DNA of 64,000 bases, from NCBI GenBank assembly GCA_022828125.1, contig JAJEJD010000012.1, positions 193,309 to 257,308 of the forward strand, read 5' to 3'. Below are positions 1,596 through 43,101 of this stretch, in pieces. The notes beneath the pieces were generated by a model that ran no database searches, was not told the DNA's origin, and saw nothing but the letters and a program-made list of their open reading frames with translations. The position numbers and the translations under genes are program-made. The stretch is from a bacterium. Its GTDB lineage: Bacteria > UBA8248. Position 1 is the stretch's first letter, and each line of letters starts with the position of its first letter.

Positions 1596-2201
1596 TCAAG
1601 AAGGCAGGGGCACGTCTTTCCCGTAAATCTGCTCGGACTGCTCTTGCGTCACGGGGTTGCCCTCGGGATCGTGCAAGGGATAGGCCTTGAGTGTGCGCAT
1701 GAAGACCTGGAAACCATAGTGAATCGCCACCATCGCGCCGATCTCCATGATCTGGGCTTCTGAAAAGTGCTTCTTGCCCTCATCGTAGAATTCCTTGTCG
1801 AGTCTCGCGGCGTCCCGGTACATCCAGTAGGAATAGCGGAGCGCCCACTTCTCGGCTTCGGTGAACTGCGGGTCGTTCTCGAAATCTCCGCAGGCGGCCT
1901 CAATGCGTTCTTCCGTCAGGCCCTCTTTTTTCGCCTGCTCGGAGCGAAGGTTCGCAAAGTAGGTGTCCTGCGCGGTTCTGGCGAGCTGGATGCGGATCAT
2001 CTCCTTGAGCTTGTGGTCCACCCCGCCCATGGCGTGGGAGCGGTGCATGGCGTCGTGCAGGTTGGCGGCATAGCCGGGCGCATGGGCCATGATGCGCGAG
2101 AAAAGCGCATCGGGCGCCTGGGTTTCGGCGGTGCGCTCCATGACGCGCTTCCAGTTCTTCTCTTCAATTCCTTCGGGTTCGAGCGGCTCGATAATCGGCA
2201 T
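1596..2201 (-). CDS. carboxymuconolactone decarboxylase (CMD/AhpD-like) family protein, Cys-less at the CxxC position
   Basis: 201 aa ORF with the CMD-family HKLKEMIRIQL block. GGAGG RBS 6 nt upstream of the ATG. Paralogous to the gene immediately upstream. Confidence 0.75.
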   Translation of the reverse strand: MPIIEPLEPEGIEEKNWKRVMERTAETQAPDALFSRIMAHAPGYAANLHDAMHRSHAMGGVDHKLKEMIRIQLARTAQDTYFANLRSEQAKKEGLTEERIEAACGDFENDPQFTEAEKWALRYSYWMYRDAARLDKEFYDEGKKHFSEAQIMEIGAMVAIHYGFQVFMRTLKAYPLHDPEGNPVTQEQSEQIYGKDVPLPS

Positions 2202-2210: not shown

Positions 2211-2873
2211 CTAGCTTCCGCCTGCCTGTTGCGCCTCACCCTCTTCGATCGCGCGAGCGAGCGGGCCGCTCAGGTGCGATACGGGGCAATCGCCGTAGAT
2301 GCGGCGCGATTCCTCCTGACTCACCAGCCGGCCGTCGGGGGTGAACATGGGGTAGAAATCGAGTGTTCTGAAAAAGGTGTGGTAGCCCACGTTGAAGCCG
2401 ATGAAAGAGCCGAGCTCAACAATTTCCTCATCCGAGTAGTGCTCGCGCAGCCTTGCGTAGAAGGCCTCGTCGATCTTCTCGGGCTCCGAATCCATGAGTT
2501 CACTGTATTCAAGCGCGAGTTTTTCGGCCTCGGTGAAAAGCTCGCTCTCGTGCCAGTTGTCGATGCCCTCGTCTATCATCTCTTCCGTCAAGCCTGCCTG
2601 CTTCGCCGAAGCAGAGCGCACGTTACCTCAGTAGTTGCAAAAGGCGCGGCGCGATAGCTGGACGCGGATGATCTCCTTGAGCTTGTGGTCGATGACGCCG
2701 GTGTTGAACACCGTGCCCCACGCGAGGTACATCGATTTCGCCAGATCCTCGTTGTGGCCCTGCATGGCGTGAAAGGCGGGGTCGGGCGCGCGGTGTTTTA
2801 ACGCCTTGTTGACGAACGGCGCCAGCTTCGTCTTCTTCAGATCCTCGATGTCGAGCATGGTGATGTTGGACAT
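2211..2873 (-). CDS. CMD/AhpD-like family protein with an in-frame TGA (2628..2630) in a C-N-Y-U motif; selenoprotein candidate (AhpD-like selenoprotein)
   Basis: ORFs 2628..2873 and 2211..2621 are in the same frame, separated only by TGA plus 2 codons. Joined product is ...HKLKEIIRVQLSRRAFCNY-U-GNVRSASAKQAGLTEEMI.... It aligns to the CMD consensus GCaYC, with Sec at the second Cys. The paralog 1596..2201 has DTYF at this position. Confidence 0.6.
2598..2614 (-). promoter_or_regulatory. hairpin (7 bp stem CUGCUUC/GAAGCAG) 13 nt 3' of the in-frame UGA; candidate bacterial SECIS
   Basis: mRNA reads UGAGGUAACGUGCGCUCUGCUUCGGCGAAGCAGGCAGG; perfect inverted repeat read directly from the sequence. 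Confidence 0.4.
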
Positions 2874-2922
2874 ATGAAATCTCCCTGAAAATGATGTGCG
2901 GGATAAATTGTCGGCTATCGCA

Positions 2923-4290
2923 TCAGGCTCCGCTCTCTGCCTGAACGCGGCGCAGGGCGGTGTCGAGAGCGGAGGCGGCGCGCTCGGCCTCTTCTTCGGT
3001 CAAGACCAGCGGCGGACTGATGGTGACGGTGTTCGAAGGACCTGCGGCGATACCTGCGTTCTTGCCGAAGATCACGCCTTGCTCCTTCGCGTAGGCCAGC
3101 ACCTTCGCCGTGGCCGCCGTGGATAGCGGCGCGCCGTCTTCCTCTATCAACTCCACGCCCCAGATGAGGCCCACGCCCCGCACGTCGCCCACGCAGGGGA
3201 TGTCGGAGAGTTTGCCCAAAAGCCCGCCGAGATATGCGCCCACCTTGGCGCCGCGCGCGGGCAACTCCTCGTCCATCATGATTTCGAGATTCTTGAGCGA
3301 CGCCGCGCAGGCGACGGGGTGTCCGCCGTAGGTGTTTATCTGCAGAAAGCCTGAGTCTCCTTCGGCGTTCAAGGCCTCGAATATCTCGTTCGTGGTCGCC
3401 GTCGCCCCGATGGGCAGATAAGCGCTGCTCAGCCCCTTGGCCATCGTCATGATGTCCGGCTCGATCTCGTACAGATCGGAGGCGAAGAGTTCTCCCGTGC
3501 GCCCGAAGCCGGTGATGACCTCATCCGCGATAAACAAAACGCCGTGGTTCCGGCACACCTCGCGCATGCGTTTCAAATAATCCGCGGGCGGTGGAATCAC
3601 CCCGCCGCCGCCGATGACGGGCTCAGCGATGAACGCCGCCACGGTCTCGGGGTCTTCGTAGCGGATGACCTCATCCAACTCGTCCGCGCACCGGCGGGCG
3701 AGTTCTTCCTCGGTGTCCGCGTTGCTTCGGTAGAAATAGGGCGCGCTCACGTGAATCACGCCCGGCAGAAGCGGCTCGAACATCGCGCGCCGGAGCGTCT
3801 GGCCGGTGAGGCTGGCGCCTCCGATGGTCGCCCCGTGATAGCCCTGGTGGCGGGCGATGATCTTGTATCGCCTCCCGCCGTTCAAGCGGCCATAGGCGCG
3901 GGCCAGCTTGATGGCCGTGTCCACGGCTTCTGAGCCCGAGTTCACGAACCAGACGCGCTCGACCCCTTCGGGCAGCAAGGACGCGAGCCGCTCGGCGAGC
4001 CTCGCCGCGGGGGGATTCACCTGCGTCAGTGGATAGTACGCCAACTCCAGCATCTGCTCGTAGGCCGCCTTGGCCACCTCGTCGCGCCCGTAGCCGATGT
4101 TCACGCACCAAAGCCCCGCCATGGCGTCGATGTATTCCTTGCCGGAGGCGTCCTGGATGGTCGAACCCCTGGCCTTGACCACGACGTCGAGGGGATTTTC
4201 CTCTATCCCGGAATGGTTCATGAGCGGATGCCAGACGTGTTCCTTGTCCATCGCCCGCAAGGATTCGGCTTCGGCTATGGCTGGATTCAT
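2923..4290 (-). CDS. class III (omega) aminotransferase, PLP-dependent
   Basis: Motifs GLWCVNIGYGRDEV, VNSGSEAVDTAIKLAR, ARHQGYHGATIGGASLTGQ. Start set at the internal Met with a GAGGGG RBS (ORF track starts 13 codons earlier, at 4329). Confidence 0.8.
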   Translation of the reverse strand: MNPAIAEAESLRAMDKEHVWHPLMNHSGIEENPLDVVVKARGSTIQDASGKEYIDAMAGLWCVNIGYGRDEVAKAAYEQMLELAYYPLTQVNPPAARLAERLASLLPEGVERVWFVNSGSEAVDTAIKLARAYGRLNGGRRYKIIARHQGYHGATIGGASLTGQTLRRAMFEPLLPGVIHVSAPYFYRSNADTEEELARRCADELDEVIRYEDPETVAAFIAEPVIGGGGVIPPPADYLKRMREVCRNHGVLFIADEVITGFGRTGELFASDLYEIEPDIMTMAKGLSSAYLPIGATATTNEIFEALNAEGDSGFLQINTYGGHPVACAASLKNLEIMMDEELPARGAKVGAYLGGLLGKLSDIPCVGDVRGVGLIWGVELIEEDGAPLSTAATAKVLAYAKEQGVIFGKNAGIAAGPSNTVTISPPLVLTEEEAERAASALDTALRRVQAESGA

Positions 4291-4384
4291 GAGGGTCCCC
4301 TCTCGGGTTTCAGCAATTCGGAATTCCATTGATCGATGCGAAAATCTTAATGCGCAAACGGGTGCGAATCAACCGCCGGGAGAA

Positions 4385-5371
4385 CTAGCCCGGCGTATAT
4401 TCGGGGCTTTCGCTCCTGATCCGAAAGGCCTGGCGCCCGACCCCCTCGATTTCGCCTTCTATCAAGTCGCCCTCCTGGAGATATTCCCCCCACGAGGCGG
4501 CGTTGCCGGCAGGAGAGCCGGTGCCGATGATGTCGCCCGTCCGAAGCGTGGCGATCCCCGATAGATACGATACCTGCTCGGCGACCCGCCAGACCATGTC
4601 GCCCGTGGTGGCGTCTTGTCTCAGTTCGCCGTTCACCCAGAGCTTGAGCCTCAAATCGTGGGGGTCGAGCCCCTCCTCGGGGAGCAGGATGTAGGGGCCG
4701 ATGGGAGCGAAGCCGTCCGGGGCCTTCATGGCGTACCAGTCGATGAACTTTCCCATGTTGAGCGTCGTGCGGTCGCTCATGTCGTTGAACAGGGTGTAAC
4801 CGCCCACGTGATCCATGGCTCTTTCCACCGGAATGTTCTTGCCGCCCTGTCCGATGAGCACGCCGAGTTCGAGTTCGTAGTCGAGCTTTTCCATCGAGGG
4901 ATAGACGGGCACGTCCTCATATGGGCCGCTCACGCACGTGGCGGGCTTCAGGAAACAGTAGAGCGGGAGCTCCTCCTTGAAATCATCCACTTCGGTGCGC
5001 GCCATCTCGGCGGCATGGGCCACATAGTTTCTCGCCATGCAGAACAGCGTGTCCGGCACGACGGGGGGAAGAATCTCGACTTCATCGGGTTCATAGACCA
5101 CCTGCATTCCGTCGAAGCGAGCCGGGTCCTTTTTGCTCCCGTGCGCTTCGAGTGCTTCGAGAGCCTCCTCGGCGAGAGGACGGTTCAGTTCCAGGTCCTC
5201 GATGAACTCCTCGCAATCATGGGGGATCTCGGCCTCGACGCGATCCATGGCCTCCGCCGCTGTTTCCTCATCGAGCGACAGGGCGTAGGCCAGTTTCAGA
5301 TCGGCGATTCTCTCCCTGAACAGGACGCCGATGCGCGCCTCGCCCGCCAGACTGAACGTACAGATTCGCAT
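4385..5371 (-). CDS. fumarylacetoacetate hydrolase (FAH) family protein
   Basis: 328 aa; FAH-family C-terminal fold pattern (GDIIGTGSPAG..., EGVG). GGAGG RBS before the ATG at 5371. Confidence 0.75.
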   Translation of the reverse strand: MRICTFSLAGEARIGVLFRERIADLKLAYALSLDEETAAEAMDRVEAEIPHDCEEFIEDLELNRPLAEEALEALEAHGSKKDPARFDGMQVVYEPDEVEILPPVVPDTLFCMARNYVAHAAEMARTEVDDFKEELPLYCFLKPATCVSGPYEDVPVYPSMEKLDYELELGVLIGQGGKNIPVERAMDHVGGYTLFNDMSDRTTLNMGKFIDWYAMKAPDGFAPIGPYILLPEEGLDPHDLRLKLWVNGELRQDATTGDMVWRVAEQVSYLSGIATLRTGDIIGTGSPAGNAASWGEYLQEGDLIEGEIEGVGRQAFRIRSESPEYTPG

Positions 5372-5510
5372 GAAGGTGAGCCTCCAGGTTTCAAGTCCGC
5401 GACAAGGGGAATCCTACCACAGGGGCGCGGGCGATGCCGCACCGCTCGTAATACAGCGTTCCAGGAAGACCAGCTAGGCTCGAAACGCCAAGACGCGTCC
5501 TGAAGCGATT

Positions 5511-6356
5511 TTATTCCGTTCTTCGGTGCCGGTTCAGAAAATCGAGAATCAGCCGCCGCGCCTTCTCGTTGCGAGAGAGGTTGTGCGCCCGGCCCTCGAA
5601 AAGGTGAAACGCCATGTTCACGCCCCGCGCCCTTGCCTTGCGCAGGCACGAATCGGCGGGCCTGCCTCGCCTCCAAGGGTCGTCTTTCGAATACAGCGCG
5701 AGTGCGGGCGTACCGATCGGCATCCGAACGCCTCGCCAGCATACGGAACCACTGATGACGTGGGCGCTGAACTCATCCCCTTCATAGGCGGCGACCGCGG
5801 TGCCGCCTTGGCTATGTCCCGCCAGGAAGAGGTTTTTCCGGTCCACCCACCGAATGCGCCGGACTCGATATTCCGCGTGATGAATCTCCTCCTGCCGCAT
5901 CCGGCTCACCCGCCGGTGCGGCGCTCCCTTTATGCCTCGGTGTCGGGAAGGATCGCAGGTCTCGGGCCGGTAGCGGCGGGCGAAGCTGTCGGGCGCGATG
6001 ACGGCGTATCCCGCCCGCGCCAGAAACCGCATATAGCGCAAGTTTCCCCGGCCCAGCCCGGTGCAGCCGTGCGCGAAAATGACGGTGGGGCGTTTTCTCT
6101 TGAGGCCCGCGAGTTTTTGCTGAATGAAACCGTCGCTCATCCTGCCTTCGATGAGCGCGTCTTCTGCCTCGAACATGACGTAAGCGGCGTCGAAGGTGCG
6201 CCTCGCCTCCTCAAACAGATCGAGCGTTTTGGGGTCGACCCCTCCGGCGCAGCCCGATAAGAGATAACAAACCAACATCAGGATGAAGATAGAATGCCGC
6301 GTGGATGAATAACCGACAGTTCCGCGCCTCATAAACCCCCTAGACCACACCCTCAT
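5511..6356 (-). CDS. alpha/beta hydrolase lipoprotein, dienelactone hydrolase-like
   Basis: Lipobox LLSGCAGG, nucleophile elbow GHSQGG, DLH-like length. Start may instead be the internal Met at about 6332. Confidence 0.6.
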   Translation of the reverse strand: MRVWSRGFMRRGTVGYSSTRHSIFILMLVCYLLSGCAGGVDPKTLDLFEEARRTFDAAYVMFEAEDALIEGRMSDGFIQQKLAGLKRKRPTVIFAHGCTGLGRGNLRYMRFLARAGYAVIAPDSFARRYRPETCDPSRHRGIKGAPHRRVSRMRQEEIHHAEYRVRRIRWVDRKNLFLAGHSQGGTAVAAYEGDEFSAHVISGSVCWRGVRMPIGTPALALYSKDDPWRRGRPADSCLRKARARGVNMAFHLFEGRAHNLSRNEKARRLILDFLNRHRRTE

Positions 6357-7572
6357 CTTCCAGCTCTTTCAACTCAGCATCCGATACGCCGAGCAGGCCG
6401 CCGAGGATCTCCGCGTTGTGCTGGCCCACGAGCGGGGCGGGCGTTTTGTAGTCACCCTTTATCTCGCTGAATTTGAAGGGAAAGCCCGGGGCTTTCGCGT
6501 TCTTGAGGGTTCCGAGGGTGGGATGTTCGATGTCGACTATCATCCCGCGCTCTCGCATGTGGGGCCAGGCGAGGATGTCCTCGATGGTGTTCACCGGCCC
6601 GCAGATGACGTCGTGCGCGCGCAGGGAGGAGACCGCTTCTTTCGCCTCGCGGCGCTTCGTCCATTCGGTGATGATGGCGTCGACCTCCGCGACTCTGCTC
6701 ACGCGCCGGCTCATGTCCTCGTAACGCTCATCGCCAATCAATTCGGGGCGCTCGATACCGCGCAGGATGTTGTGCCAATGCGCGTTGGTGCCCGAGGCGA
6801 TGATGACCCAACCGTCTTTCGTCTCATAGGCGTTGAACGGGGCGAGCCGCATGATGCGGTTGCCGATGCGCGGCGGGAGGCCCAGTTGTTCGTAAAAATC
6901 CATCGGCTCATCGAAGATCAGGGAGAAGATGCAGTCGATCATCGAAATGTCGACCTGCTGGCCCTCCCCGGTGCGCTCGCGGTGAAAGAGCGCCGTCATA
7001 ATGGCGCCGAAGGCGAACGTGCCGCCCACGCTGTCACCGAGCGCGGAGCCCGCCTTGGTGGGCGGGCCGTCGGGAAATCCCGTGAGGTTCATGAGGCCCG
7101 AGGCGGCCTGGGAGACGGCGTCGTAGCCCTTGAGGCCCGAATCCGGCCCCGTCTGGCCGTAACCCGTGATGGAGCAGTAGACCAGGGAGGGCTTTCTCGC
7201 ATGGAGCGTCTCGTAGTCAACTTTAAGCCTTTTCGTGACGCCGACGGAGAAATTCTCCACCAGGATGTCGGATTGATCCACGAGCCCGTAGAACATTTCG
7301 AGACCCCGGGGGTCCTTGATGTTCAGGGTGATCGCCTTTTTCGCGCGCGTGCGCTTCAAGTAGGCAATCCCCAGGTCCTCATCCGTCTGGGGATGGTAGG
7401 AGACGCCCTTCTCACCGATGTAGGGTGGCGAATAAGCCACCGGGTCGCCGGTGGCCGGATTGTCGACACGGATGACCTCGGCCCCCAGCCCCGCCAGAAA
7501 AAGCGTGGCCTGCGGACCCGAGAGAAACTGCGTCAGGTCGAGGACGCGGATGCCTTCTAATGGCTTCGTCAT
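6340..7572 (-). CDS. CoA transferase family III (CaiB/BaiF-type)
   Basis: MTKPLEGIRVLDLTQFLSGPQATLFLAGLGAEVIRVD... is the family III CoA-transferase N-terminal signature. Roughly 75% identical to the paralog at 46755..47987. Confidence 0.85.
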   Translation of the reverse strand: MTKPLEGIRVLDLTQFLSGPQATLFLAGLGAEVIRVDNPATGDPVAYSPPYIGEKGVSYHPQTDEDLGIAYLKRTRAKKAITLNIKDPRGLEMFYGLVDQSDILVENFSVGVTKRLKVDYETLHARKPSLVYCSITGYGQTGPDSGLKGYDAVSQAASGLMNLTGFPDGPPTKAGSALGDSVGGTFAFGAIMTALFHRERTGEGQQVDISMIDCIFSLIFDEPMDFYEQLGLPPRIGNRIMRLAPFNAYETKDGWVIIASGTNAHWHNILRGIERPELIGDERYEDMSRRVSRVAEVDAIITEWTKRREAKEAVSSLRAHDVICGPVNTIEDILAWPHMRERGMIVDIEHPTLGTLKNAKAPGFPFKFSEIKGDYKTPAPLVGQHNAEILGGLLGVSDAELKELEDEGVV

Positions 7573-7583: not shown

Positions 7584-8126
7584 CTAGCCTTCGAGCAGAA
7601 TCTTCACCGCCTGGCGGGCCGCATCGCCCGCGCGCGCGGAGATTTCCTCATCCGAGAGCGTGCTCAGGGGGTGCTGGATAACCACGGGGTCGAGGTCGTT
7701 CATGCCCAAAGCCGCCCTTTGCACGTGGGCTTCGTGCAGGAAGACCTCGGTCACGACAACGGCGGTGGGCACCCCTTTTTCTTCCAGGGAGATCGCATCG
7801 TGCATACAGCACGAAGTGCAGGAGCCTCAGTCCCCGATCGCCGTCAGGACGACGTCGTTCTCCTCCGCGATCTGCGCGATCAACTCAGGCGCCGCGTTTT
7901 TGGAAAAACTCTCTTTCTTGTAGTAGCGCACCTCGGCGAAGGGGCCTTCCGCCTCCATCAGCGCCGTGGTTTTCTCGAGCAGCCTGCGCCCGTTCCACTT
8001 CGTGTTGTCCAGGACGCCGAGCTTGAGACCCTTCAAATCCCGGACGCGCTGCGCAGTGGGTTGGGCCGCTGCCTCGACCACTCCCCGGGGGTCGTAGACG
8101 ACCTGACCGGTGATGACGTCACTCAT
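7584..8126 (-). CDS. small protein with in-frame TGA (7827..7829) in a D-U-G-S-C-T-S-C-C motif; selenoprotein candidate (UGSC-type)
   Basis: ORFs 7827..8126 and 7584..7805 share one frame, with only TGA plus 7 codons between them. Joined product is about 181 aa: ...VVLTAIGD-U-GSCTSCCMHDAISLEEKGVPTAVVV.... UxxCxxC-like arrangement. Confidence 0.6.
7798..7814 (-). promoter_or_regulatory. hairpin (UCGUGC/GCACGA stem, UGUAU loop) 12 nt 3' of the in-frame UGA; candidate SECIS
   Basis: mRNA reads UGAGGCUCCUGCACUUCGUGCUGUAUGCACGAUG; inverted repeat seen directly. Confidence 0.35.
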
Positions 8127-8154: not shown

Positions 8155-9249
8155 CTATAGCAGACAGGTGCCGTCCACGCAGACGGGGCCGCCTTCGAGC
8201 GCTCTTCCGTCGATTGCGCGCAGCACCGGGTTCGTCATGTGGCCCCAGCCGGGAATGAAGGCCGAGAAACGGCCCGCCTCCCCGCCCGCCACGAACAGGT
8301 GAATGTTCTCGGGAGACGGCACGATGGGGATTCTCTCATCCGGCTCGCGCCTGTACCACTTGGGGATGTTGCGGTTGTAAACTTTTCCGTAGCGGTGGTT
8401 GAACGAGATATCGGCGAACGTGTTCCTGGTGTGCATCCACAGGTAGCTCTTCACGTCGTTCCGCGTCCAGTTCTTTGCGCTGATGGTCGCCCCGTGCTCG
8501 GGGCTGATGACGACGGCGCACGAGCCGCTGCTCACCGAATTGTTGTGCGCGATCGTGCTCATCGCCGAGCAGATGCTGTCGAGGATGCCCTCGGGATCGT
8601 CCGAGATGTGGTTCGTCACGCTGTGGGGCGCCTCGGCCGCGATGGCGAAGACCGTGGAATCCTCGGGCGCGTAGCCCTGTTCCACGTGGTAGGGCGCCCA
8701 GGGGCTGGCCTCTTCGTTCTCCGCGATGCAGTAGGTGTATTTGGTGGGACAGCCCAGCGTGCTCTTGTCCAGATCGCCCGGCCACGCGCCGCCGGCGTTC
8801 AAGAGCATCATCCGCACCGCGCGGCCTATCGTCGCGTTGGCGCGGTTGCCCGAGCCGAACACGTTGCAGCCCGCGTTCATGCCGATCTCGTGCCGAACCG
8901 GCCCGTTCACCACGATGAGCGGGCACGCCATGTGTGTTGTGGCCTGCACGCCGTTCAGGTTGAAATGGGGGTCGCAAAGCGCCAGCATCGCCGCGCGGAC
9001 GACGGGCGCGTACTCCGCCTTGCAGCCCGCCATTACCATGTTGATCGCCAGAACCTCTCTCGTGAGGTTGCCCCAGCGAGGCGGCACGCGGCACTCGATG
9101 TAGTCTTTATCTCCGCCCAGGGCTGAGACGGCAGCGTCTATCTTCTCGGGCGTGGGCGGGACGACGGGAAGCCCGTCCGAGAAGCCCTGCTCGTAGTAGT
9201 ACTCCACCAAGTCGACTTCCTGATCCACCATCTGCGTCGTCTGCGACAT
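8155..9249 (-). CDS. conserved hypothetical protein (Cys-rich, 364 aa), first gene of the apparent operon
   Basis: Long ORF with GC-typical codon usage. The next gene follows 28 bp downstream. I do not recognise the family. Confidence 0.5.
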   Translation of the reverse strand: MSQTTQMVDQEVDLVEYYYEQGFSDGLPVVPPTPEKIDAAVSALGGDKDYIECRVPPRWGNLTREVLAINMVMAGCKAEYAPVVRAAMLALCDPHFNLNGVQATTHMACPLIVVNGPVRHEIGMNAGCNVFGSGNRANATIGRAVRMMLLNAGGAWPGDLDKSTLGCPTKYTYCIAENEEASPWAPYHVEQGYAPEDSTVFAIAAEAPHSVTNHISDDPEGILDSICSAMSTIAHNNSVSSGSCAVVISPEHGATISAKNWTRNDVKSYLWMHTRNTFADISFNHRYGKVYNRNIPKWYRREPDERIPIVPSPENIHLFVAGGEAGRFSAFIPGWGHMTNPVLRAIDGRALEGGPVCVDGTCLL

Positions 9250-13402: not shown

Positions 13403-14332
13403 TTATCTGGAGTCGAAAACGCGGACGAATTGCAGCTTCTTCTTATCCCACCGCCAGAATTCCTCGATGGGAAAACGTTCGATTAGAATCTCGTTTTTAT
13501 CTTTCCCGCCCTTGAGATTGAAGACCCGCTCCTCGTATTTCCTGACCCCCTTGAGGATGAGGGTGGCCGGATTGCCCGGCCCGTTGAAGCGGAAACGAAC
13601 CTTGGCGCTCAGGTCTTCGCTTCTCTGGACAGCCCGGGTTCTCGCATCGTTCAGGTACGCCTTCGGCCATCTCAGTTCCTCTTGCAAGTGAGCGAACCAC
13701 ACCAGTTCGAAGCGGCGCTTTTGGGCCGGCTTGATGACCCGCACGGCGTCTGAATAGCGGTCGTTCGACTCCTCGCGGACGTTGACTATCAATTCGTGCG
13801 ATCCGTCCCCCGTCAAATCGGCGATCTGGTAGGTGATCTCCCGCCCCCGGCTCAAGTCGCTGTAGGAGGCGAGCGGCTTGCGGGCGCTCTTGTCGTCATC
13901 CATCAGGCAAAAGGAGATGTAGTGGTCCTTGGCGTGATCCGACTGGATGACCATGAGGGTTTCGAGGCGTTTGTCCGCGTCCATGTTGAGCGGGATAAAA
14001 TCCACCGTGAAGGCGTAATTCTTGAGATGATCGGAAGAGAGGTACCAGGGCCATTCGTTTTCAGGGAGCGGGCAGTTCGACAGAGCGTTGAGTTGCACGT
14101 TGGCGTCCGAGGAGAAAAATTTACGAACCAGCAGCCAATCCTGGGGCTTCTCCAGCCGCTTGAGATGGGAGACGAGACGGGAAACGCGTCTTTGCTCTAT
14201 CGCCTCGGGGGTCTCCGGCGCAGCCGCAGAGACCCCCATGCTCCAAGCCGAAGCAAGGAGCCACAATATCAAGGCCATCCCCATGAGGCCTCTCATCGCA
14301 TGCTCCTTATCGAGCGCTACCCTATGAAGCAA
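13403..14332 (-). CDS. hypothetical secreted protein (signal peptide)
   Basis: N-terminal hydrophobic signal MGMALILWLLASAWSMGVSAAAP; no recognisable domain. Confidence 0.45.
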   Translation of the reverse strand: MLHRVALDKEHAMRGLMGMALILWLLASAWSMGVSAAAPETPEAIEQRRVSRLVSHLKRLEKPQDWLLVRKFFSSDANVQLNALSNCPLPENEWPWYLSSDHLKNYAFTVDFIPLNMDADKRLETLMVIQSDHAKDHYISFCLMDDDKSARKPLASYSDLSRGREITYQIADLTGDGSHELIVNVREESNDRYSDAVRVIKPAQKRRFELVWFAHLQEELRWPKAYLNDARTRAVQRSEDLSAKVRFRFNGPGNPATLILKGVRKYEERVFNLKGGKDKNEILIERFPIEEFWRWDKKKLQFVRVFDSR

Positions 14333-15404: not shown

Positions 15405-16139
15405 TTATTCGCGCGCTCTCAAGGCCTCCTTCACGCGGCCGACTCCCAGATGTTCGGCGATTACGTCCTCTCGCGCAAGGAGCTCTTCGCTCGTTCCCTC
15501 GAAGGCGACGAAACCGCGGCTCAGCACGTAGAAATAATCGCCCACCTCCAGCGCCAGGGAGAGGTTCTGTTCCACGAGGAGGATGGAGAGGCCGTGCGTG
15601 CGGGTCTTCATGATTCCGTCCCTGATGGAGCGGACGAGGCCGGGCGCGAGCCCTTCAGTCGGCTCATCGAGCAGAATCAGCCTTGGACGCGCCACCAGGG
15701 CGCGCGCGATCACGAGCATCTGCTGCTCACCGCCGCTCAGGCTCCCCGCCAGTTGTCTGGCGCGCTCTTCCAGGACAGGGAAAAACGCCAGCGCTTCGCT
15801 GACGCCGTTCGCGTCGGAGTGCGGGCTGGCCTGCGCCGCCACGCGGATGTTCTCCTCCACGCTCAAGGAACCAAAGGGCCGCCTGTCCTCGGGCACGTAG
15901 GCCACTCCCATGCGGGCGACCTGGTGAGCCGCCATCGTGTCGATACGCTGCTCCTCGAAGAGGATTTCGCCTGAAGTGGCGGACACGAGCCCTATGATGG
16001 ACTTGAGCGTCGTGCTCTTGCCCGCGCCGTTGCGCCCGATGAGGCAGACGATTTTGCCTGCGCCCACCTCGAGGTCTACGCCGTGGAGAACGTGGGCGCT
16101 CCCGTAATGGACGTGGAGTGAGGAGACTTTGAGCATCAA
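15405..16139 (-). CDS. livF: branched-chain amino acid ABC transporter ATP-binding protein LivF
   Basis: Walker A GRNGAGKST, LSGGEQQML, LLDEP. TTG start overlaps the livG stop. Confidence 0.85.
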   Translation of the reverse strand: MMLKVSSLHVHYGSAHVLHGVDLEVGAGKIVCLIGRNGAGKSTTLKSIIGLVSATSGEILFEEQRIDTMAAHQVARMGVAYVPEDRRPFGSLSVEENIRVAAQASPHSDANGVSEALAFFPVLEERARQLAGSLSGGEQQMLVIARALVARPRLILLDEPTEGLAPGLVRSIRDGIMKTRTHGLSILLVEQNLSLALEVGDYFYVLSRGFVAFEGTSEELLAREDVIAEHLGVGRVKEALRARE

Positions 16140-16895
16140 TCCTCCTCCACTTCGACGGCGCCCAGATAGGCGTCCTGCACCTGAGGGTCCTGGCTGATCT
16201 GCTCGGGCGGACCCTGGGCGATCACCCGGCCCTGCGTCATCACGGTGATTTTATCCGAAATCGAGAGAACCACCTCCGTGTCGTGCTCTACGAGGAGGAC
16301 GCTCGTGCGCTCCGCGATTTGCCTTACCAGGCGGGCGATGCGCTCGGTCTCCGTTCGGGACATGCCCGCCGTCGGTTCATCGAGCAACAGGACCTCGGGG
16401 TTGAGCGCAAGCCCGATCGCCACCTCGAGCACGCGCTTGTCCCCGTGTCCCAACTCCTCGGGCCGCAGGTGGGCCTTCTCGATCAGCCCGACCACCTCCA
16501 GCGATTCCTCCGCGTCCTCGCGGGCCTCGATGCAGGCGCTCGCCTTTCGGAAGAAATCGAAATTGTATCCCTCTCGGGAGCGCGCCGCGAGTTCGACGTT
16601 CTCGCGCGCGCTCAATTCGCCGAAGACCTGGGTGATCTGGAAGGTGCGGACAATCCCCGTCTTCACCAGCTTGTGGGAAGGCAGATGGGTGACGTCGCTC
16701 CCGTTCAACGACACCTTGCCGGCGTCGGGACGGAGGAATCCGGTGATGCAGTTGAACAGCGTCGTCTTGCCGGCGCCGTTCGGGCCGATGAGCGCGTGCA
16801 CCTGCCCGGCTTCGATGTCCAGGGACACGTCGTTCACGGCGTGCAGGGCGCCGAAGGACTTGTGGAGGCCTTCTACTACGAACGCGCCGGCCACA
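16136..16895 (-). CDS. livG: branched-chain amino acid ABC transporter ATP-binding protein LivG
   Basis: GPNGAGKTT, the LivG-specific insertion, LLLDEPTAGM. The ORF track extends it to 17440, but that part overlaps livM in another frame. Start taken at a GTG near 16895. Confidence 0.75.
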
Positions 16896-17880
16896 GCCGT
16901 CTCCAGATTCTCTCGGCGATGCCTGCGATTCCCGAGGGCATGAACAAGACGGCGAGCACGAAAGCGAGCCCGAAAGAAAACTGCCACGCCCGGTACATCG
17001 TCGTCACCTGATCGCGGATGAATATGAAGCCTATCGAGCCGATAATCGGGCCGAAAAGCGTTCCGATGCCGCCCAGAATCGTGATGGCCAGTATGTTGCC
17101 CGACTCGATCCAGTAGAGCGACATCGGGTTCGCGCCCGCCTTCAGGAAGACGAAGAGCGTTCCCGCCACGCCGCCCGTCATCCAGGAAAGGATGAGAATC
17201 ACCAGCTTGTGCCGCCTCACGTCGATGCCGATGGCCGCCGCCCTGTCCTCGTTCGCGCGAATCGCCAGCAGGGTTTTCCCGAAGGGAGACTCCACCACCC
17301 TCCTCAGAAGAAGATAGCAGACGATGAGCGTAGCCGCGGTGAGGAGGTAGAACTCCTCGCCGGGCTCCACCTCCCGGCCGAAGAGCGTGGGCAGCGGAAC
17401 GCCGATCAAGCCGTCCAGCCCGCCGGTGAACGAGCGCCACACGACGGATATCTGGAACAGGACCTGGCAGATGCAGAGCGTGAGAATGGCGAAGGCGATT
17501 CCCGAGAGGCGCGTCACCACCAGGCCGGTCAGAAACGCCACCGCGGCGGCGGCGGCGATGGCCACGATGGTCGAGAGGAAAAAATCCGCGGAAATGTTCA
17601 TGGCGAATATGCCCGCGGCATAAGTCGCGAAGCCGAAACTCGCCGCGTGGCCGAACGAGACGAGTCCCGTGTAGCCCACCAGCAAATCGAGGCTCATCGC
17701 CCAGATGCCGAAGATCAAAGCCTCGGTGAGCAGGGTGATGAAAAACGGGCTGGCGCCCAGAAACGGAACCGCCAGCACCAGGAGCGCGGAGCCGGCGAGC
17801 AGCACCCGCGTCGCCACTTCCCGCGAACGGGTCTTCGAGGCGTCTTCTACCAGGTTTTCCACCTCAGGCGATGCGGCCAC
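16876..17880 (-). CDS. livM: branched-chain amino acid ABC transporter permease LivM
   Basis: Polytopic hydrophobic protein with the LivM pattern (GYTGLVSFGHAA..., IRANEDRAAAIGI). Confidence 0.8.
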   Translation of the reverse strand: MAASPEVENLVEDASKTRSREVATRVLLAGSALLVLAVPFLGASPFFITLLTEALIFGIWAMSLDLLVGYTGLVSFGHAASFGFATYAAGIFAMNISADFFLSTIVAIAAAAAVAFLTGLVVTRLSGIAFAILTLCICQVLFQISVVWRSFTGGLDGLIGVPLPTLFGREVEPGEEFYLLTAATLIVCYLLLRRVVESPFGKTLLAIRANEDRAAAIGIDVRRHKLVILILSWMTGGVAGTLFVFLKAGANPMSLYWIESGNILAITILGGIGTLFGPIIGSIGFIFIRDQVTTMYRAWQFSFGLAFVLAVLFMPSGIAGIAERIWRRLWPARS

Positions 17881-18730
17881 GACCGAAAACCCCTCTGGGC
17901 CGAAGAACCATGATCGCGGCCACGACCAGGAACAAGACTGCGATGGCCCACTCCGCGATGTAGCCCCCGCCGATGGATTTCGCGAGCGCCACGATGAACG
18001 CCCCCACGGCCGTCCCGGGCAGATGGCCGAGACCGCCCAGGATCACCGCCAGGAACGAGTCGATGATGATGCCCATTCCCATCTCCGGCTCGACGGAAAA
18101 AATGGGAGCGCCCAGCGCGCCCGCGAACGCCGCGAACCCCGCAGCACCCCCGAAGATGCTCGTGAGCAGCCAGCGCGTGTTGATGCCGAGCGCCTCGGCC
18201 ATTTCGTTGTCATCCGTGATGGCGCGAATCTTGAGGCCCACCGCCGTGAACTGGATGAAGACGAAGACCAGCCCCGTCACCAGCAATGACAGCGCCGACG
18301 CAAAGAGCCTGTAGACGGGGAACTGATTGCCGAGGATGTCCACCGTGCCCTGGAAGATGACGGGTGGTTTGATGAGGGTGGTCTCGGTGCCCCAGAGATA
18401 CTCGATTGCGCCCGTGATCATGAAGGAAAGGCCAAACGTCACGAGCAGCGTGTAGATTTCATCCCGGTTCCGGATGGGGGCGATCGTCAGCCATTCCATC
18501 GCGATGGCCAGGGGCACCACCACCAGCGGGGCGAACACCATCGCCCCCCAGCCCAGCGAGGGCAGGAAGATGATGAAGAAATACCCCCCCAGGGCGTAAA
18601 GCACCCCGTGCGCGAAGTTGACGACTCGGCCCAAGCCGAACACCAGGCTCAGGCCGAGACTCGTCAACGCCAGGAACGATCCGTAGATGATCCCGTTCAG
18701 CGAATTGACGAACAAGAAATTCCAATCCAT
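17864..18730 (-). CDS. livH: branched-chain amino acid ABC transporter permease LivH
   Basis: GLSLVFGLGRVVNFAHG... LivH signature; 288 aa. Confidence 0.8.
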   Translation of the reverse strand: MDWNFLFVNSLNGIIYGSFLALTSLGLSLVFGLGRVVNFAHGVLYALGGYFFIIFLPSLGWGAMVFAPLVVVPLAIAMEWLTIAPIRNRDEIYTLLVTFGLSFMITGAIEYLWGTETTLIKPPVIFQGTVDILGNQFPVYRLFASALSLLVTGLVFVFIQFTAVGLKIRAITDDNEMAEALGINTRWLLTSIFGGAAGFAAFAGALGAPIFSVEPEMGMGIIIDSFLAVILGGLGHLPGTAVGAFIVALAKSIGGGYIAEWAIAVLFLVVAAIMVLRPRGVFGRGRIA

Positions 18731-23824: not shown

Positions 23825-25891
23825 ATGCGATTCGCGGTCGATACGGGCGGGACCTTCACCGACCTGGTGCTCGAGGACAACCGGGGCCGCCTCCACATGT
23901 TCAAGGCCCCCACGACGCCCCAGGACCCGGTGGAGGGCATTCTCGCGGCGATAGAGTCGGCAGCCGTTGCGCTCTCGACGAGCACCGAAGAACTCCTCGC
24001 CCAGGGCGAGCTCTTCATCCACGGCACCACCCACGCCACGAACGCCATCGTGACGGGGAACACCGCGAAGACCGCCTTCCTCACCACGAAGGGCCACCCC
24101 GACATCCTCGTGCTGCGCGAGGGCGGGCGCATGGAGCCGTTCAACTTCCTGGTGCCCTTCCCCAAACCCTACATCCCGCGCGCGCTCACCTACGAGGTGC
24201 CCGAGCGCATCGGCGCCGACGGCAGCGTCTATGAGCCGCTCGATGAGGCGGGCGTCATCAATATCATCGAGGAGCTCAAAGAAAAAGAAGTGGAGGCGGT
24301 GGCCGTCTCTCTCCTGTGGTCCACCGTGAACCCTCAGCATGAAATCGGCGTGGGACGCCTGCTCAAAAAACACTTGAAGGGCGTGCCATACACCTTATCT
24401 CATGTCCTCAACCCGATTCTCCGCGAATACCGCCGGGCGTCTTCCACCTGCATCGACGCATCGCTCAAGCCCCTGATGTCGCGCTACATCGGCGGTTTGC
24501 AGGAGCGGCTGGCCGCGGCGGGCTTCGCCGGAAGGCTCCTGATGCTGACTTCCAAGGGCGGCGTGATGGACGCGGGCGAACTCGCCGAAGCGCCCATCCA
24601 CTCGGTGGGTTCGGGGCCTTCGATGGCGCCCATCGCGGGCAGGCACTTCTCCCGCGCCGACGCCAGGGCCGCGACGGCGATAGTGGCCGACACCGGCGGC
24701 ACCACCTACGACGTGAGCCTCGTGCGCCGGGGCGAGATACCCATGTCGCCCGAAACCTGGCTCGGCCAGCGTTACCGGGGCCACATACTGGGCTTCCCCT
24801 CGGTCGACGTGAAGAGCATCGGCGCGGGCGGCGGCAGCATCGCCTGGGTGGATGAGGGCGGACTCCTGCACGTCGGCCCCCAGAGCGCGGGCGCGGAGCC
24901 GGGGCCGGCCTGCTACGGCCGGGGCGGAACGCGCCCCACCTTGACGGACGCATCTTTGGTGCTCGGCCACATCGACCCGGACTATTTCCTGGGCGGCGCG
25001 ATGACGCTCAACACTTCCGAAGCCGAGAAGGCCATCTCGAAAAACGTGGCCGAACCGCTGGGGCTATCTCTTCAGGAGGCGGCCTCGGCCATTTTGAGAC
25101 TGGCGACGGAGAACATGGTGGGCGCGATCGAGGAGATCACCATCCACCAGGGCATCGACCCCAGGGGCGCGGTGCTCATCGGCGGCGGCGGTGCTGCGGG
25201 CTTGAACTCGGTCGCCATCGCCAAGCGCCTGGGCTGCCAGGGCCTCGTGATTCCGGAAGTCGGCGCGGCGCTATCGGCCGCGGGCGCGATGATGAGCGAC
25301 CTGCACGCCGATTACCGCTCGATGTTCTTCACCATCACGGACCGGTTCGACTTCAAGGGCGCGAACGCGACCCTGAGAACGCTCGGCGACAGGTGCCGCG
25401 CGTTCATCAAAGGCCCCGGCAAGGGGGCGGTGGAGAGCGCAACGGAGTTCTACGTCGAGGCGCGCTACAAGCACCAGATCTGGGAGATCGACCTGGGGCT
25501 GCCCATCAACCGCTTCCGCTCGAAAAAAGACGTGGAGCGCACGCGGGCGGCGTTCGACGAAGTGCACGAGGAGGTGTTCGCCTTCCGCGATCCCTCATCC
25601 GAGGTCGAATTCGTCGGCTGGCGCGCCGTGGCGCGGTGCAAACTGAGAAAGGGCCGCTTCGGCAGGCTCGTCCGCGAGGCGATCCACGAGACGACGCTGC
25701 CCAAGCGGCGCGAAGCCTACTTCGCGGGCAAGGGACTCGTGAACGCCCGCGTGGCGGCGTTCGATTCCATGAAGCCGGGCGAGGCGATGCGAGGCCCCGC
25801 CATCATCGAATCGCCGTTCACGACGGTGGTCATCGACCCCGGCGCAAAGGCCGAGCGCACGAGAAGCGGCAGTCTGTTCATTACGCTCTAG
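23825..25891 (+). CDS. hyuA: hydantoinase/oxoprolinase A family protein
   Basis: MRFAVDTGGTFTDLVL start and the ADTGGTTYDVSLV second ATP-binding motif; 688 aa. Confidence 0.85.
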   Translation: MRFAVDTGGTFTDLVLEDNRGRLHMFKAPTTPQDPVEGILAAIESAAVALSTSTEELLAQGELFIHGTTHATNAIVTGNTAKTAFLTTKGHPDILVLREGGRMEPFNFLVPFPKPYIPRALTYEVPERIGADGSVYEPLDEAGVINIIEELKEKEVEAVAVSLLWSTVNPQHEIGVGRLLKKHLKGVPYTLSHVLNPILREYRRASSTCIDASLKPLMSRYIGGLQERLAAAGFAGRLLMLTSKGGVMDAGELAEAPIHSVGSGPSMAPIAGRHFSRADARAATAIVADTGGTTYDVSLVRRGEIPMSPETWLGQRYRGHILGFPSVDVKSIGAGGGSIAWVDEGGLLHVGPQSAGAEPGPACYGRGGTRPTLTDASLVLGHIDPDYFLGGAMTLNTSEAEKAISKNVAEPLGLSLQEAASAILRLATENMVGAIEEITIHQGIDPRGAVLIGGGGAAGLNSVAIAKRLGCQGLVIPEVGAALSAAGAMMSDLHADYRSMFFTITDRFDFKGANATLRTLGDRCRAFIKGPGKGAVESATEFYVEARYKHQIWEIDLGLPINRFRSKKDVERTRAAFDEVHEEVFAFRDPSSEVEFVGWRAVARCKLRKGRFGRLVREAIHETTLPKRREAYFAGKGLVNARVAAFDSMKPGEAMRGPAIIESPFTTVVIDPGAKAERTRSGSLFITL

Positions 25892-25900
25892 GAGCAGGAT

Positions 25901-27703
25901 ATGGCGAGAGCAGCAACGAGACGCGCGAAGCGAAAGACGAAACTCGATCCCATCACACTGGCCGTGCTGCACAAGCGCTTCGACGCCGTGACGACCAAGA
26001 TGGCGAACACGCTCCTGCGCACGGGCCGCTCGGGCGTGCTGAACCTCGCGCGCGATTTCTCGACCTCCGTGGTGACGCGCGAGTGCGAACTGCTGACGGG
26101 CGCGGAATCACTGCCCATCCACCACCTCAGCGGCGCGGACCTGATGGCCCGCTCGATGATGGACCTACACCCCGACCTCAAGCGCGGCGACGCCTATCTG
26201 CACAACTCGCCCTACCACGGCTGCTCGCACCCGGCGGACCACACCATCCTCGTGCCCGTCATCGACAAGCGGGGCGAGCACCAGTTCACCGTGTGGGTGA
26301 AGGCCCACCAGGCGGATTGCGGGTGCAGCCAGCCCACCACCTACATGGGCCACGCGCGCGATGTCTATGAAGAGGGCGCGCTCATCTTCCCGCCCACCAA
26401 GGTGCAGACGAACTACGAGGACAACGAGGACTTCATCAACTTCTGCCGGATGCGCATCCGCGTGCCCGAGCAGTGGTACGGCGACTATCTCGCGATGATT
26501 GGTGCTGCGCGCATCGGCGAGCGCGAGGTGCTCGCCATGGGCGATGAATACGGCTGGGAGACGCTGCACGATTTCTCGAAGGAGTGGTTCGACTACAGCG
26601 AGAAGCTCATGGTCTCCGCCATCAAAAAACTCCCCACGGGCGAGGCCACCGCCCACAGCACGCACGACCCCGTGCCCGGCACGCCCGAGGAGGGCATCCC
26701 CATCACCGCGCACGTGCGGATCGACAACAAAAAGGCCACCATCGAGGTGGACTTGCGCGACAACCCCGACGCCATGCCCTGCGGCCTGAACCTGAGCGAG
26801 GCCTGCGCACGCACCGGCGCGATGATCGGCGTGTTCAACAGCATCGACGACATCGTGCCCACGAACGCGGGCAGCTTCCGCCGGATCAACGTGCTCATCC
26901 GCGACGGCTCGGTCGCGGGCGGCGGCAAGCACCCCACTTCGATGTCCGTGGCCACCACCAACCTCGCCGACCGCGTGACGAACCCGGTGCAGCGCGCGTT
27001 CTCGAAGATTCAGGACGGCATCGGCCTGGCGGAATGCGGGCCGATTTTCCCGGCGTCGATGGGCGTCATCTCGGGCTTCGACCCCAGGAACGACAACGAG
27101 CCCTTCGTGAACCACCTCTTTTTAATGGTTACCGGCGGCGCGGGCGCGGGCAAGACCGACGCCTGGCTCACCATCCTGCACGCGGGCAACGCCGGCATGT
27201 GCTTCGTGGACAGCATCGAACTGGACGAACTCCACTTCCCCATCTACATCAAGACGCGCAGGCTCATGCCCGACACCGAGGGCGCGGGCCGGACGATAGG
27301 CGCGCCTTCGGGCTATTGCGAATACGGCCCCGTGGGAGGCGGCGATCTCGAGGTCGTCTACGTGTCCGACGGCGCGATAAACGCTTCGAAAGGCACGCTC
27401 GGCGGGCTGAACGGGGCGGCTTGCAAGAATTTCCTCATGCGCGAGGACGGCTCTCTGGAGGATCTCCCCGCCTGTGCTGACATCATCTTAAAGCCCGGCG
27501 AGAACGTGGCGTCCTACTGTACGGGCGGGGGCGGCTACGGCCCGCCGCACGAGCGGCCCGTCGAGAAGGTGCGCGAGGACGTGGAGGAGAAGTGGATCAC
27601 CAAAGAGCGCGCCTGGAAGGTCTACGGCGTCGCGGTCGACGACGCGGGCCAGGTGGATGCGGCCAGAACCAGGCGGAAACGGAACCGGTTGAGTAACAAG
27701 TAG
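25901..27703 (+). CDS. hyuB: hydantoinase B/oxoprolinase family protein
   Basis: 600 aa; the HyuB-type DPITLAVLHKRFDAVTTKMANTLLRTGRSGVLNLARDFSTSV block. Adjacent to hyuA with a 9 bp gap. Confidence 0.85.
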   Translation: MARAATRRAKRKTKLDPITLAVLHKRFDAVTTKMANTLLRTGRSGVLNLARDFSTSVVTRECELLTGAESLPIHHLSGADLMARSMMDLHPDLKRGDAYLHNSPYHGCSHPADHTILVPVIDKRGEHQFTVWVKAHQADCGCSQPTTYMGHARDVYEEGALIFPPTKVQTNYEDNEDFINFCRMRIRVPEQWYGDYLAMIGAARIGEREVLAMGDEYGWETLHDFSKEWFDYSEKLMVSAIKKLPTGEATAHSTHDPVPGTPEEGIPITAHVRIDNKKATIEVDLRDNPDAMPCGLNLSEACARTGAMIGVFNSIDDIVPTNAGSFRRINVLIRDGSVAGGGKHPTSMSVATTNLADRVTNPVQRAFSKIQDGIGLAECGPIFPASMGVISGFDPRNDNEPFVNHLFLMVTGGAGAGKTDAWLTILHAGNAGMCFVDSIELDELHFPIYIKTRRLMPDTEGAGRTIGAPSGYCEYGPVGGGDLEVVYVSDGAINASKGTLGGLNGAACKNFLMREDGSLEDLPACADIILKPGENVASYCTGGGGYGPPHERPVEKVREDVEEKWITKERAWKVYGVAVDDAGQVDAARTRRKRNRLSNK

Positions 27704-31514: not shown

Positions 31515-31707
31515 AAGGCAACCCCCCCTACCCCCCCTTGTCAGGGGGGTAAGAAAAAGCAAAACCCCTTCCACCCGGCGGCGGGCAAGGAAAAGCAAAA
31601 TCCTCTCGGCCCGGCGGCGGGCGTCGTCTTTTTTTCATATCCCGTACTTGCCGGGGGGTCGGTCTTTTTTACCCCCCTGTTAAGGGGGGGTAGGGGGGGT
31701 TGCTTTT
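31515..31707. repeat. MITE-like element family R1, copy 2 (longer, with internal duplication)
   Basis: AAAGGCAACCCCCCCTACCCCCCCTTGTCAGGGGGG ... ACCCCCCTGTTAAGGGGGGGTAGGGGGGGTTGCTTTT. Confidence 0.8.
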
Positions 31708-42197: not shown

Positions 42198-43100
42198 GTG
42201 GACCGAACCGAGGCCCGAAAACCCATTGATAATCAAGAGGTAAAGCGCACAGCCCGCGAGCTGGGCGCCGACCTCGCGGGGGTCGCATCGGCGGAGGATT
42301 TCGCGGAAGCGCAGCCGGGCTGCCGCCCCAGGGACTTGTTCAACATGGCGAACAGCGTCGTCGTGGTCGCCAAGCGCGTCCCCTTCGCCGCGGCCACGCC
42401 CTATCCCAGCATCGGCGCGATGGAGTTCGGTGAATACATCCCCGAGAATTTCCTGAACGAAGCCTGCTATCGCCTCTCGCTGTTTCTCGAAGATATGGGC
42501 TGGCTCTCGGGCGCCACCCCGTGCGGGCGCGACATCACGAGCTTCCGCGTGGAAGAAGAAGGCGCCGAACCCAGGGTCTTCCTCCAGGGCTCCTTCGACT
42601 TGCGGCTCGCGGCGGTCAAGGCCGGTCTCGGGCATATCGGCGCCAATAACTGCCTGATAACGCAGGAGTACGGCTCTCGCGTCCGCCTGGGCGCGGTGTT
42701 CACCGAGGCGAAGCTCGAACCCGACCCGCCCAACCAGGTCGGCGCGATCCCCGAGTTCTGCCATGAGTGCGGCTTTCGCTGCGTGAAGGCCTGCCCCGCG
42801 AACGCGCTGCCCGGCGACGGCACGGTGGATCACTACCGCTGCATGGTCATCCGGCCGGACCTGGTCGCGCCGGAAAAAGCCCTGGCCCACTTCAAGAAAC
42901 TCTTCCGGGGCAAGCCCATGATCATGGCGGCCAAGGGCCTCTCCTACACCGACAGCCCGCCGCATCCATGCAGCACCTGCATCGCGCTCTGCCCGATGGA
43001 TCAGGGCCGCGATTTCGCGCATAAACCCTTTCACCGCGAATCCTGGACCGATGAAGACGCGCTCAAGGTCATCGATCCGGCCCTGCTGGAGAATCCCTGA
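42198..43100 (+). CDS. QueG-like (epoxyqueuosine reductase family) 4Fe-4S protein, paralog 1
   Basis: GANNCLITQEYGSRVRLGAVFTEAKLEPDPP block plus Cys cluster CHECGFRCVKACP. GTG start aligned to the paralog. Confidence 0.5.
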   Translation: MDRTEARKPIDNQEVKRTARELGADLAGVASAEDFAEAQPGCRPRDLFNMANSVVVVAKRVPFAAATPYPSIGAMEFGEYIPENFLNEACYRLSLFLEDMGWLSGATPCGRDITSFRVEEEGAEPRVFLQGSFDLRLAAVKAGLGHIGANNCLITQEYGSRVRLGAVFTEAKLEPDPPNQVGAIPEFCHECGFRCVKACPANALPGDGTVDHYRCMVIRPDLVAPEKALAHFKKLFRGKPMIMAAKGLSYTDSPPHPCSTCIALCPMDQGRDFAHKPFHRESWTDEDALKVIDPALLENP

Positions 43101-43101
43101 A

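Follow-up and report, generated by a model that had tools for sequence, protein, structure and literature searches.

An AhpD-like gene interrupted by a conserved in-frame UGA in a bacterium of the UBA8248 lineage: a very probable C-x-x-U selenoprotein with a tandem partner

Upstream of its tandem paralogue on the minus strand of a 64,000-nucleotide (nt) stretch of bacterial DNA (GTDB lineage UBA8248; assembly GCA_022828125.1, contig JAJEJD010000012.1, positions 193,309 to 257,308), here called the window, lies a gene of 220 codons, referred to below as A, whose reading frame is interrupted by a single TGA. This is very probably a single gene for a selenocysteine (Sec, U)-containing, AhpD-like redox protein of the C-x-x-U type. 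The frame is conserved across the TGA in bacteria of several phyla, a hairpin of the bacterial selenocysteine insertion sequence (SECIS) type is held almost without change just downstream, and distant homologues carry cysteine at the same site. The elements on which the argument turns are as follows.

2211..2873, minus strand: gene A, candidate selenoprotein of the AhpD/carboxymuconolactone decarboxylase (CMD) kind; 220 codons plus stop, ATG at 2871-2873 and TAG at 2211-2213
2628..2630, minus strand: in-frame UGA, predicted to be read as selenocysteine U82, in the place of the second Cys of CxxC; TGA in 82/82
2637..2639, minus strand: codon of Cys79, partner of U82 in C-x-x-U; TGC or TGT in 75/75 distinct sequences
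2598..2614, minus strand: SECIS-like hairpin within the coding sequence, CUGCUUC-GGC-GAAGCAG; 7-bp stem, loop GGC at 2605-2607

Conservation of the reading frame across the TGA

Between the ATG at 2873 and the TAG at 2211, translation encounters only one internal stop, the TGA at 2628-2630, in the context ...IIRVQLSRRAF-C-N-Y-TGA-G-N-V-R-S-A-S-A-K-Q... The list of open reading frames (ORFs) cuts the gene in two on the minus strand, into 2628..2873 (81 amino acids, aa) and 2211..2621 (136 aa, with the GTG at 2619-2621 as its start), and the TGA and the GTG are separated by just two codons, GGT AAC. The original prediction, made from the sequence alone, had described the two pieces as co-linear with the TGA and two codons between them and had placed the TGA at the second cysteine of the CMD motif; the ORF list and the translation bear out the former, and the latter holds because the Cys of distant homologues aligns there. 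The motif of the joined protein is E67-x11-C79-N-Y-U82-G-N-V-R86, and its assignment to the CMD family (Pfam PF02627) is confirmed by a score of 28.6 bits over residues 49-106, the gathering score being 23.

When the joined protein, with U written as C, was used as query, a protein search returned 265 relatives, and a scan of one genome per species located 253 loci, the best 80 of which (full length, 68-98% protein identity to A) are the basis of the conservation counts. The 82 sites compared consist of the window, 79 of those 80 loci and two further loci. The metagenome-assembled genomes (MAGs) that carry the orthologues are labelled Nitrospinota, Tectomicrobia, Acidimicrobiia, Rhodospirillales/Rhodospirillaceae, other Alphaproteobacteria, Verrucomicrobiales, Chthoniobacterales, Anaerolineales and Gammaproteobacteria, with those labelled Nitrospinota 95-98% identical to the window protein, which points to Nitrospinota as the probable lineage of the window. 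At the aligned site every one of the 82 has TGA and none has TGC, TGT or TGG, and over the same sites, which include 75 distinct sequences around the codon, there is neither an indel nor a shift of register. Entropy at codon positions 1, 2 and 3 in 81 distinct sequences is 0.45, 0.27 and 1.27 bits upstream of the TGA and 0.46, 0.37 and 1.26 bits downstream of it; variation concentrated at third positions in the same register on both sides indicates one frame throughout, and rules out both a read error and a pseudogene. The codons that follow the TGA (GGN AAY GTN) vary synonymously only, preserving G-N-V, and Cys79 is invariant in both alignments of the family.

A profile search of 1.84 billion representatives yielded 1693 relatives. 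Two classes can be distinguished among the relatives that cover the site: one has D-x-Y-F, the type of the tandem paralogue described below, and the other has C-x-Y/F-C, exemplified by C-G-Y-C-G-T-V-R-S, of the pattern C-G-Y-C-G-x-x-R-S, and by C-E-Y-C-G-N-Q-R-S. The second Cys of C-x-Y-C aligns under the UGA in P0146, P0147, P0159, P0171, P0178, P0179, P0180, P0189 and P0227. As aligned with these homologues of 24-31% identity, the UGA site is a classical Cys/Sec pair, and insertion of Sec at codon 82 can be predicted on the strength of the sequence comparisons.

A conserved hairpin downstream of the UGA

The stem of the hairpin at 2598-2614 begins 13 nt after the UGA and its apical loop lies 20 nt after it, within the codons for part of S-A-S-A-K-Q. 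In the published consensus for bacterial SECIS elements, the apical loop is 3-9 nt long and has a G at its first or second position, often in the form N1-G-[G/U]-N-N2, the stem has 4-16 bp, the distance from UGA to loop is 16-37 nt and the minimum free energy is -7.5 kcal/mol or lower (PMC13188914). The hairpin agrees with this description on all four counts, having the loop GGC (C-GGC-G), a 7-bp stem, a spacing of 20 nt and an energy of -9.1 kcal/mol in context (-7.6 in isolation). The original prediction had proposed it as a SECIS element, and its comparative record, given next, sustains the proposal.

In an alignment of 75 distinct orthologous sequences of 75 nt, pairing is intact in 99.2% of the cells of the 7-bp stem, compared with 26-68% for controls slid along the alignment, and none of 500 shuffles matched the observed covariation or pairing. 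The pair 2613/2599 (27-41 in the alignment) covaries, occurring as U-A in 54 sequences, C-G in 19 and U-G in 2, with 19 double changes; the 3'-side G of the C-G form turns a Gln codon into Arg, so the protein tolerates a substitution that preserves the stem. The window sequence forms the hairpin with a base-pair probability of ~0.9, and folding of single sequences yields it in 52/75. A search against Rfam at gathering thresholds gave no match to the hairpin or elsewhere in the window.

Constraint on synonymous sites follows the hairpin closely. Sites +5, +8, +11 and +14 after the UGA, and those from +35 on, vary freely, while +15 to +32 (TCYGCTTCGGCGAAGCRG) is nearly invariant. The five consecutive third positions from +20 to +32, which coincide with the hairpin, have zero entropy, and no other run of five in 483 nt of gene A comes near zero, the next lowest sum being 3.62 bits. 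Invariance of the peptide S-A-S-A-K is peculiar to the TGA family; in the Cys homologues the corresponding peptide varies, which places the constraint in the TGA family on the RNA. With eighteen nucleotides held across the sampled phyla, save for one covarying pair and rare single changes, and with adjoining synonymous sites free, the family offers a very clean natural case of a SECIS element within coding sequence. The near-identity of this element, set beside 68-80% protein identity between phyla, suggests that gene A may have spread horizontally.

Protein family and predicted fold

The NCBIfam models that match A best are all of AhpD/CMD selenoproteins or peroxidase-related proteins of the YciW/COG2128 type, and none reaches its cut-off. 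The best of them, NF053654 ('YciW-related (seleno)protein', GroundWater_YciW), matches residues 43-171 with E = 6.8e-20 and 71.6 bits against a cut-off of 310, and TIGR01926 (peroxidase-related enzyme) gives 37.2 bits against 81.8. Like A, the NF053654 family consists of CMD-type proteins with Sec or Cys forms, but the distance between score and cut-off makes A a distinct subfamily.

An AlphaFold2 model of a homologue 70% identical to A (P0003) is all-helical (predicted local distance difference test score, pLDDT, 76.5; predicted template modelling score, pTM, 0.73). Foldseek matched this model to 7xw1, 2o4d, 2ijc, 6ohi, 2prr and 6k40 as its top hits, all with probability 1.00, PA0269, Bmp8 and further AhpD-core proteins being among the best matches, and its superposition on the Pseudomonas aeruginosa AhpD protein PA0269 (7xw1/2ijc/2o4d) has a target TM-score of 0.84 and a root-mean-square deviation of 2.0-2.1 Å over 136 columns. 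The homologue is thus predicted by the model to have the AhpD/CMD fold. By sequence, the closest solved structure to A is Bmp8 (E = 2e-11 over 124 residues, 19% identity), which has the same fold and in which C-M-Y-C aligns with C-N-Y-U (PDB 6ohi, 6ohj). Bmp8 is a tetrabromopyrrole debrominase, a homologue of CMD that uses thiol chemistry to remove bromine (PMC7918430; PDB titles).

A second selenoprotein gene and the selenocysteine machinery

The window contains a further gene that is cut at an in-frame TGA.

7584-8126, minus strand: UGSC-family selenoprotein gene; TGA at 7827-7829 in I-G-D-TGA-G-S-C

The ORF list gives only a 99-aa piece of this gene, and the truncated ORF scores 83.6 bits; the joined product of 180 aa matches Pfam PF24696 end to end (positions 2-171 of 172) with 199 bits. 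Its TGA is kept in 20/20 related loci and a hairpin, UCGUGC-UGUAU-GCACGA, starts 12 nt after it. UGSC ranks among the major selenoprotein families already known (PMC2398784). Like A, the protein is a redox-motif selenoprotein, and its gene too is split by an in-frame TGA and has a hairpin just downstream, but its fold is unrelated and its motif is UxxC (U-G-S-C) rather than CxxU. The two genes are co-located in Nitrospinota-type loci and are not linked outside that lineage; a 364-aa ORF adjoining the UGSC gene (8155-9249) is likewise conserved in related Nitrospinota-type loci.

In an alphaproteobacterial MAG (OFTM101, locus L063), genes for tRNA-SeC (2326-2419), SelB (2498-4423) and SelA (4420-5838) form a block directly beside, and divergent from, the orthologue of A at 6001. 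Together with the UGSC gene of the window, this arrangement makes it probable that the source genome encodes a Sec machinery. MAGs named Nitrospinota by NCBI, which may not be the lineage of the window, are among the bacteria richest in selenoprotein genes in BSepDB, with 48-54 each (PMC13326102).

Alternative explanations

The two ORFs might be separate small genes, the first ending at the UGA (2628) and the second encoding an independent 136-residue protein from the GTG at 2621, with the hairpin acting in mRNA stability or ribosome pausing. Public annotation has the look of such an arrangement: some 100 of the best 120 protein matches to A are fragments of 121-144 aa starting MRSASAK, that is, right after the TGA, and genes of 81 and 137 aa are called in one of the orthologous loci (L001). 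At the supposed restart, however, no more than 24 of the 75 sequences have GTG; in the rest the codon is GTC, GTT or GTA, none of which is a start codon, so the C-terminal piece has no conserved start codon of its own. A split would moreover divide a C-x-x-C motif that is intact in the Cys homologues, and it accords poorly with the purely synonymous changes in the G-N-V codons and the unbroken register over the 82 sites; it is very improbable. Just as hard to credit is the decoding of the UGA as Trp, Gly or Cys without selenium, whether by a reassigned code or by leaky near-cognate read-through. Read-through by tRNA-Trp or tRNA-Cys does occur at leaky UGA codons, and the few full-length database matches to A (~200-213 aa; P0001-P0005) show W at the site. 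A genuine Trp variant was nevertheless rejected, since the DNA of P0001 has TGA and its W is a gene-calling artefact that arose when a Trp code was applied to a 1.3-kb contig; the remaining entries (P0002-P0005), on contigs of ~1 kb, are likely the same artefact. TGA serves as the stop codon of 15 of 37 other window genes supported by Pfam, and it also closes A itself in 27 of its 81 orthologues, which shows the recoding to be local and not a global reassignment. An ordinary amino acid at this site would also lead one to expect TGC or TGG in some of the 82 loci, which is never the case, and it is further opposed by a hairpin that fits the SECIS model and is conserved at the right distance, and by the Sec machinery adjoining the L063 orthologue.

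A recent nonsense mutation, or a base-call error at 2628-2630, would likewise leave a gene intact but for one in-frame stop. The original prediction had held a frameshift or pseudogene to be the less parsimonious explanation and had raised the matter of sequencing error. Both concerns are settled by the relatives, which neither end nor shift frame at this position: this TGA recurs in 81 further independent assemblies, among them short-read and long-read chromosome-level MAGs, and purifying selection acts on both sides of it. Copies of a single contaminant are ruled out by the 75 distinct sequences, and a pseudogene or an error is extremely unlikely. Some results do weigh against a SECIS-directed selenoprotein of AhpD type. 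Covariation is confined to one of the seven pairs of the stem, five pairs never vary and pair 28-40 is mismatched in four sequences. In free energy the 71-nt region does not stand out from shuffled sequence (z = 0.45), and RNAalifold applied to the 75-column alignment gives another, weak structure (-3.1 kcal/mol) in place of the hairpin; applied to a shorter sub-alignment it recovers six of the seven pairs. Pfam scans of ~45 genes found no selA, selB or selD in the 64-kb window, and ARAGORN found no tRNA-Sec, or any other tRNA, there. The Cys form was not seen among close relatives (at least 68% identity), so that the Cys/Sec pairing rests on the homologues of 24-31% identity, and the replacement of the His of the AhpD motif by Arg means that AhpD-type chemistry is not assured for A. 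With all this taken into account, we conclude with high confidence that 2211-2873 is one gene, encoding a 220-residue selenoprotein of the AhpD/CMD fold in which Sec at codon 82 would be directed by the hairpin at 2598-2614.

Partner gene B and the A-B operon

Downstream of A on the same strand lie a second CMD-like gene, B, and an inverted repeat.

1596..2201, minus strand: tandem paralogue B, CMD-like; 201 aa, Pfam CMD 24.7 bits
1549..1580, minus strand: perfect 15-bp inverted repeat with a 2-nt loop, 16 nt after the B stop, followed by U-A-U-U-U-A-U

The original prediction had noted that the paralogue has D-T-Y-F at the active site and no Cys there. The alignment, which sets D-T-Y-F against the C-N-Y-U of A, agrees, and B is therefore without a redox pair; its match to NF053654 is weak (42.4 bits). 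The ATG of B stands 9 nt after the stop of A, which is overlapped by GGAGGAG, and B is translationally coupled to A. The inverted repeat is, to judge from its position and shape, likely to be an intrinsic terminator that closes the A-B operon.

B lies directly downstream of A in 76 of the 82 loci and in every phylum sampled, and three of the six loci with no match to B end within ~900 nt of the gene start. In a SAR324 MAG (L085, 2749-4029) the two genes are fused in frame as one ORF of 426 codons with the same TGA and hairpin, and database proteins P0006, P0013 and P0019 point to A-B fusions in betaproteobacterial and other MAGs as well. This linkage and fusion argue that A and B act together, and their products most likely work in a complex. 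The constant pairing with a redox-dead partner, and the fusion, give rise to a testable hypothesis, that of a heteromeric AhpD-like selenoenzyme.

Two database proteins, P0056 (181 aa) and P0138 (141 aa), appear from their sequences to be A/B chimeras, in which an A-type N-terminus (…MGHN…FNTGR…) runs into the D-x-Y-F and C-terminus of the B type. This is the pattern that a deletion between tandem paralogues, removing the Sec site, would give.

No neighbour other than B is conserved across phyla in the 82 loci. In the window, A is accompanied by genes for a class-III aminotransferase, an FAH-family hydrolase, a dienelactone hydrolase and a CoA-transferase. The aminotransferase/FAH/CoA-transferase context is specific to Nitrospinota/Tectomicrobia-type loci, and a neighbour set that is specific to a lineage gives no general clue to the function of A and does not choose between candidate substrates. 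The Pfam-scanned neighbours of A in the window include no ahpC or other peroxiredoxin gene, and no bmp-type halogenase, P450 or carrier-protein cluster surrounds A.

Annotation and other content of the window

In public records A appears as two fragments, or as its C-terminal piece under the name 'carboxymuconolactone decarboxylase family protein' or 'hypothetical protein'. Because the records split the gene and no curated NCBIfam model reaches its cut-off, the 253 loci and the database proteins that begin just after the TGA are probably mis-annotated.

Elsewhere in the window, intergenic palindromic elements with C/G runs occur at 1324-1439 (AAAACCAACCCCCCCTTGTCAGGGGGG…), with inverted arms of 16-44 nt, and a similar motif, GGGCAAGAAAAAGCAAAACCCCC, is repeated at 31547-31622; these may belong to a dispersed repeat resembling repetitive extragenic palindromic (REP) sequences or miniature inverted-repeat transposable elements (MITEs). 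Six long ORFs (37722-40076, 43051-43971, 44460-45545, 8155-9249, 13403-14332 and 62611-63438) have a coding-like GC content at third codon positions and no Pfam match at E <= 1e-4. Ordinary catabolic content is represented by paired hydantoinase/oxoprolinase A and B genes (23825-27703), by two genes of CoA-transferase family III, at 6340-7572 and 46755-47987, by a TctA/TctC transporter (52378-55536) and by LCM-type methyltransferases, two in tandem (60097-61826). The interval 16136-18730, considered as a long read-through candidate, was rejected, as it holds two adjacent permease genes in different frames.

Proposed mechanism

It is proposed that SelB, with Sec-tRNA(Sec) bound, attaches to the hairpin at 2598-2614, whose loop is 20 nt behind the UGA, and that Sec is inserted at codon 82 in place of termination. 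The product would have the active site E67-x11-C79-x-x-U82. On the analogy of AhpD and the other CxxC proteins with this fold, the selenolate of U82 would be the attacking nucleophile, and it could act on a peroxide, on the sulfenic acid or disulfide of a partner, or on an electrophilic atom of a substrate. C79 would then resolve the intermediate to a selenenyl-sulfide, which a cellular reductant would reduce again, and the C-x-x-U oxidoreductase would work together with the redox-inactive B.

The chemistry and the substrate can be approached by analogy only as far as two candidates, the reduction of peroxide or sulfenic acid as in AhpD, or attack on an electrophilic atom as in Bmp8; dehalogenase activity of A, suggested by the latter comparison, is only a possibility. 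A more far-reaching proposal, which we consider unlikely, is that A and B constitute a two-subunit selenoenzyme (two-domain in SAR324) whose close relatives are Sec-only and which has spread between phyla as a cassette with its own SECIS element, acting through selenol attack, for example in a Bmp8-like reductive dehalogenation, and not through the peroxide relay of AhpD. A chemistry other than that of AhpD is put forward because Arg replaces His and no AhpC is found. Were the dehalogenase proposal true, A would be a bacterial counterpart, with a different fold, of the Sec-dependent thyroid deiodinases.

Comparison with known systems

The catalytic motif of Mycobacterium tuberculosis AhpD is E-x11-C-x2-C-x3-H, in which the His helps to activate the thiol. 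Compared with this protein and with PA0269, A keeps the Glu-x11-Cys-x2-Cys spacing as E67-x11-C79-x2-U82, with Sec for the second Cys, but the position of the His is taken by Arg86, which is invariant in the A family. It further differs from AhpD in having ~50 extra N-terminal and ~45 extra C-terminal residues and a heterologous partner, B.

That CxxU proteins of the AhpD-like/CMD kind are a known selenoprotein class, as the original prediction had stated, is well documented. CMD-domain CxxU selenoproteins of this kind (COG2128) were reported in 2005 from the Sargasso Sea (PMC1088965), 'AhpD-like 1' ranked fourth in abundance among the selenoprotein families of the Global Ocean Sampling (GOS) survey, with 299 sequences (PMC2398784), and AhpD-like selenoproteins are treated under TIGR01926 in a 2026 review (PMC13188914) and are included in BSepDB (PMC13326102). 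An obligatory Cys-less partner, an A-B fusion and a His-to-Arg change find no mention in PMC1088965, PMC2398784 or PMC13188914, and the same is true of the lack of close Cys forms and the near-identity of the SECIS element across phyla. These additions are modest and leave the current understanding of selenoproteins unchanged. Gene A belongs, by the published description, to the known AhpD-like C-x-x-U kind, examples of which are AACY01418594 and MCB9421940.1. With the Sargasso Sea and GOS proteins it shares Sec as the second Cys, the AhpD/CMD fold and a downstream SECIS element with a G in the apical loop, and like them it is found in marine Alphaproteobacteria and other uncultured bacteria.

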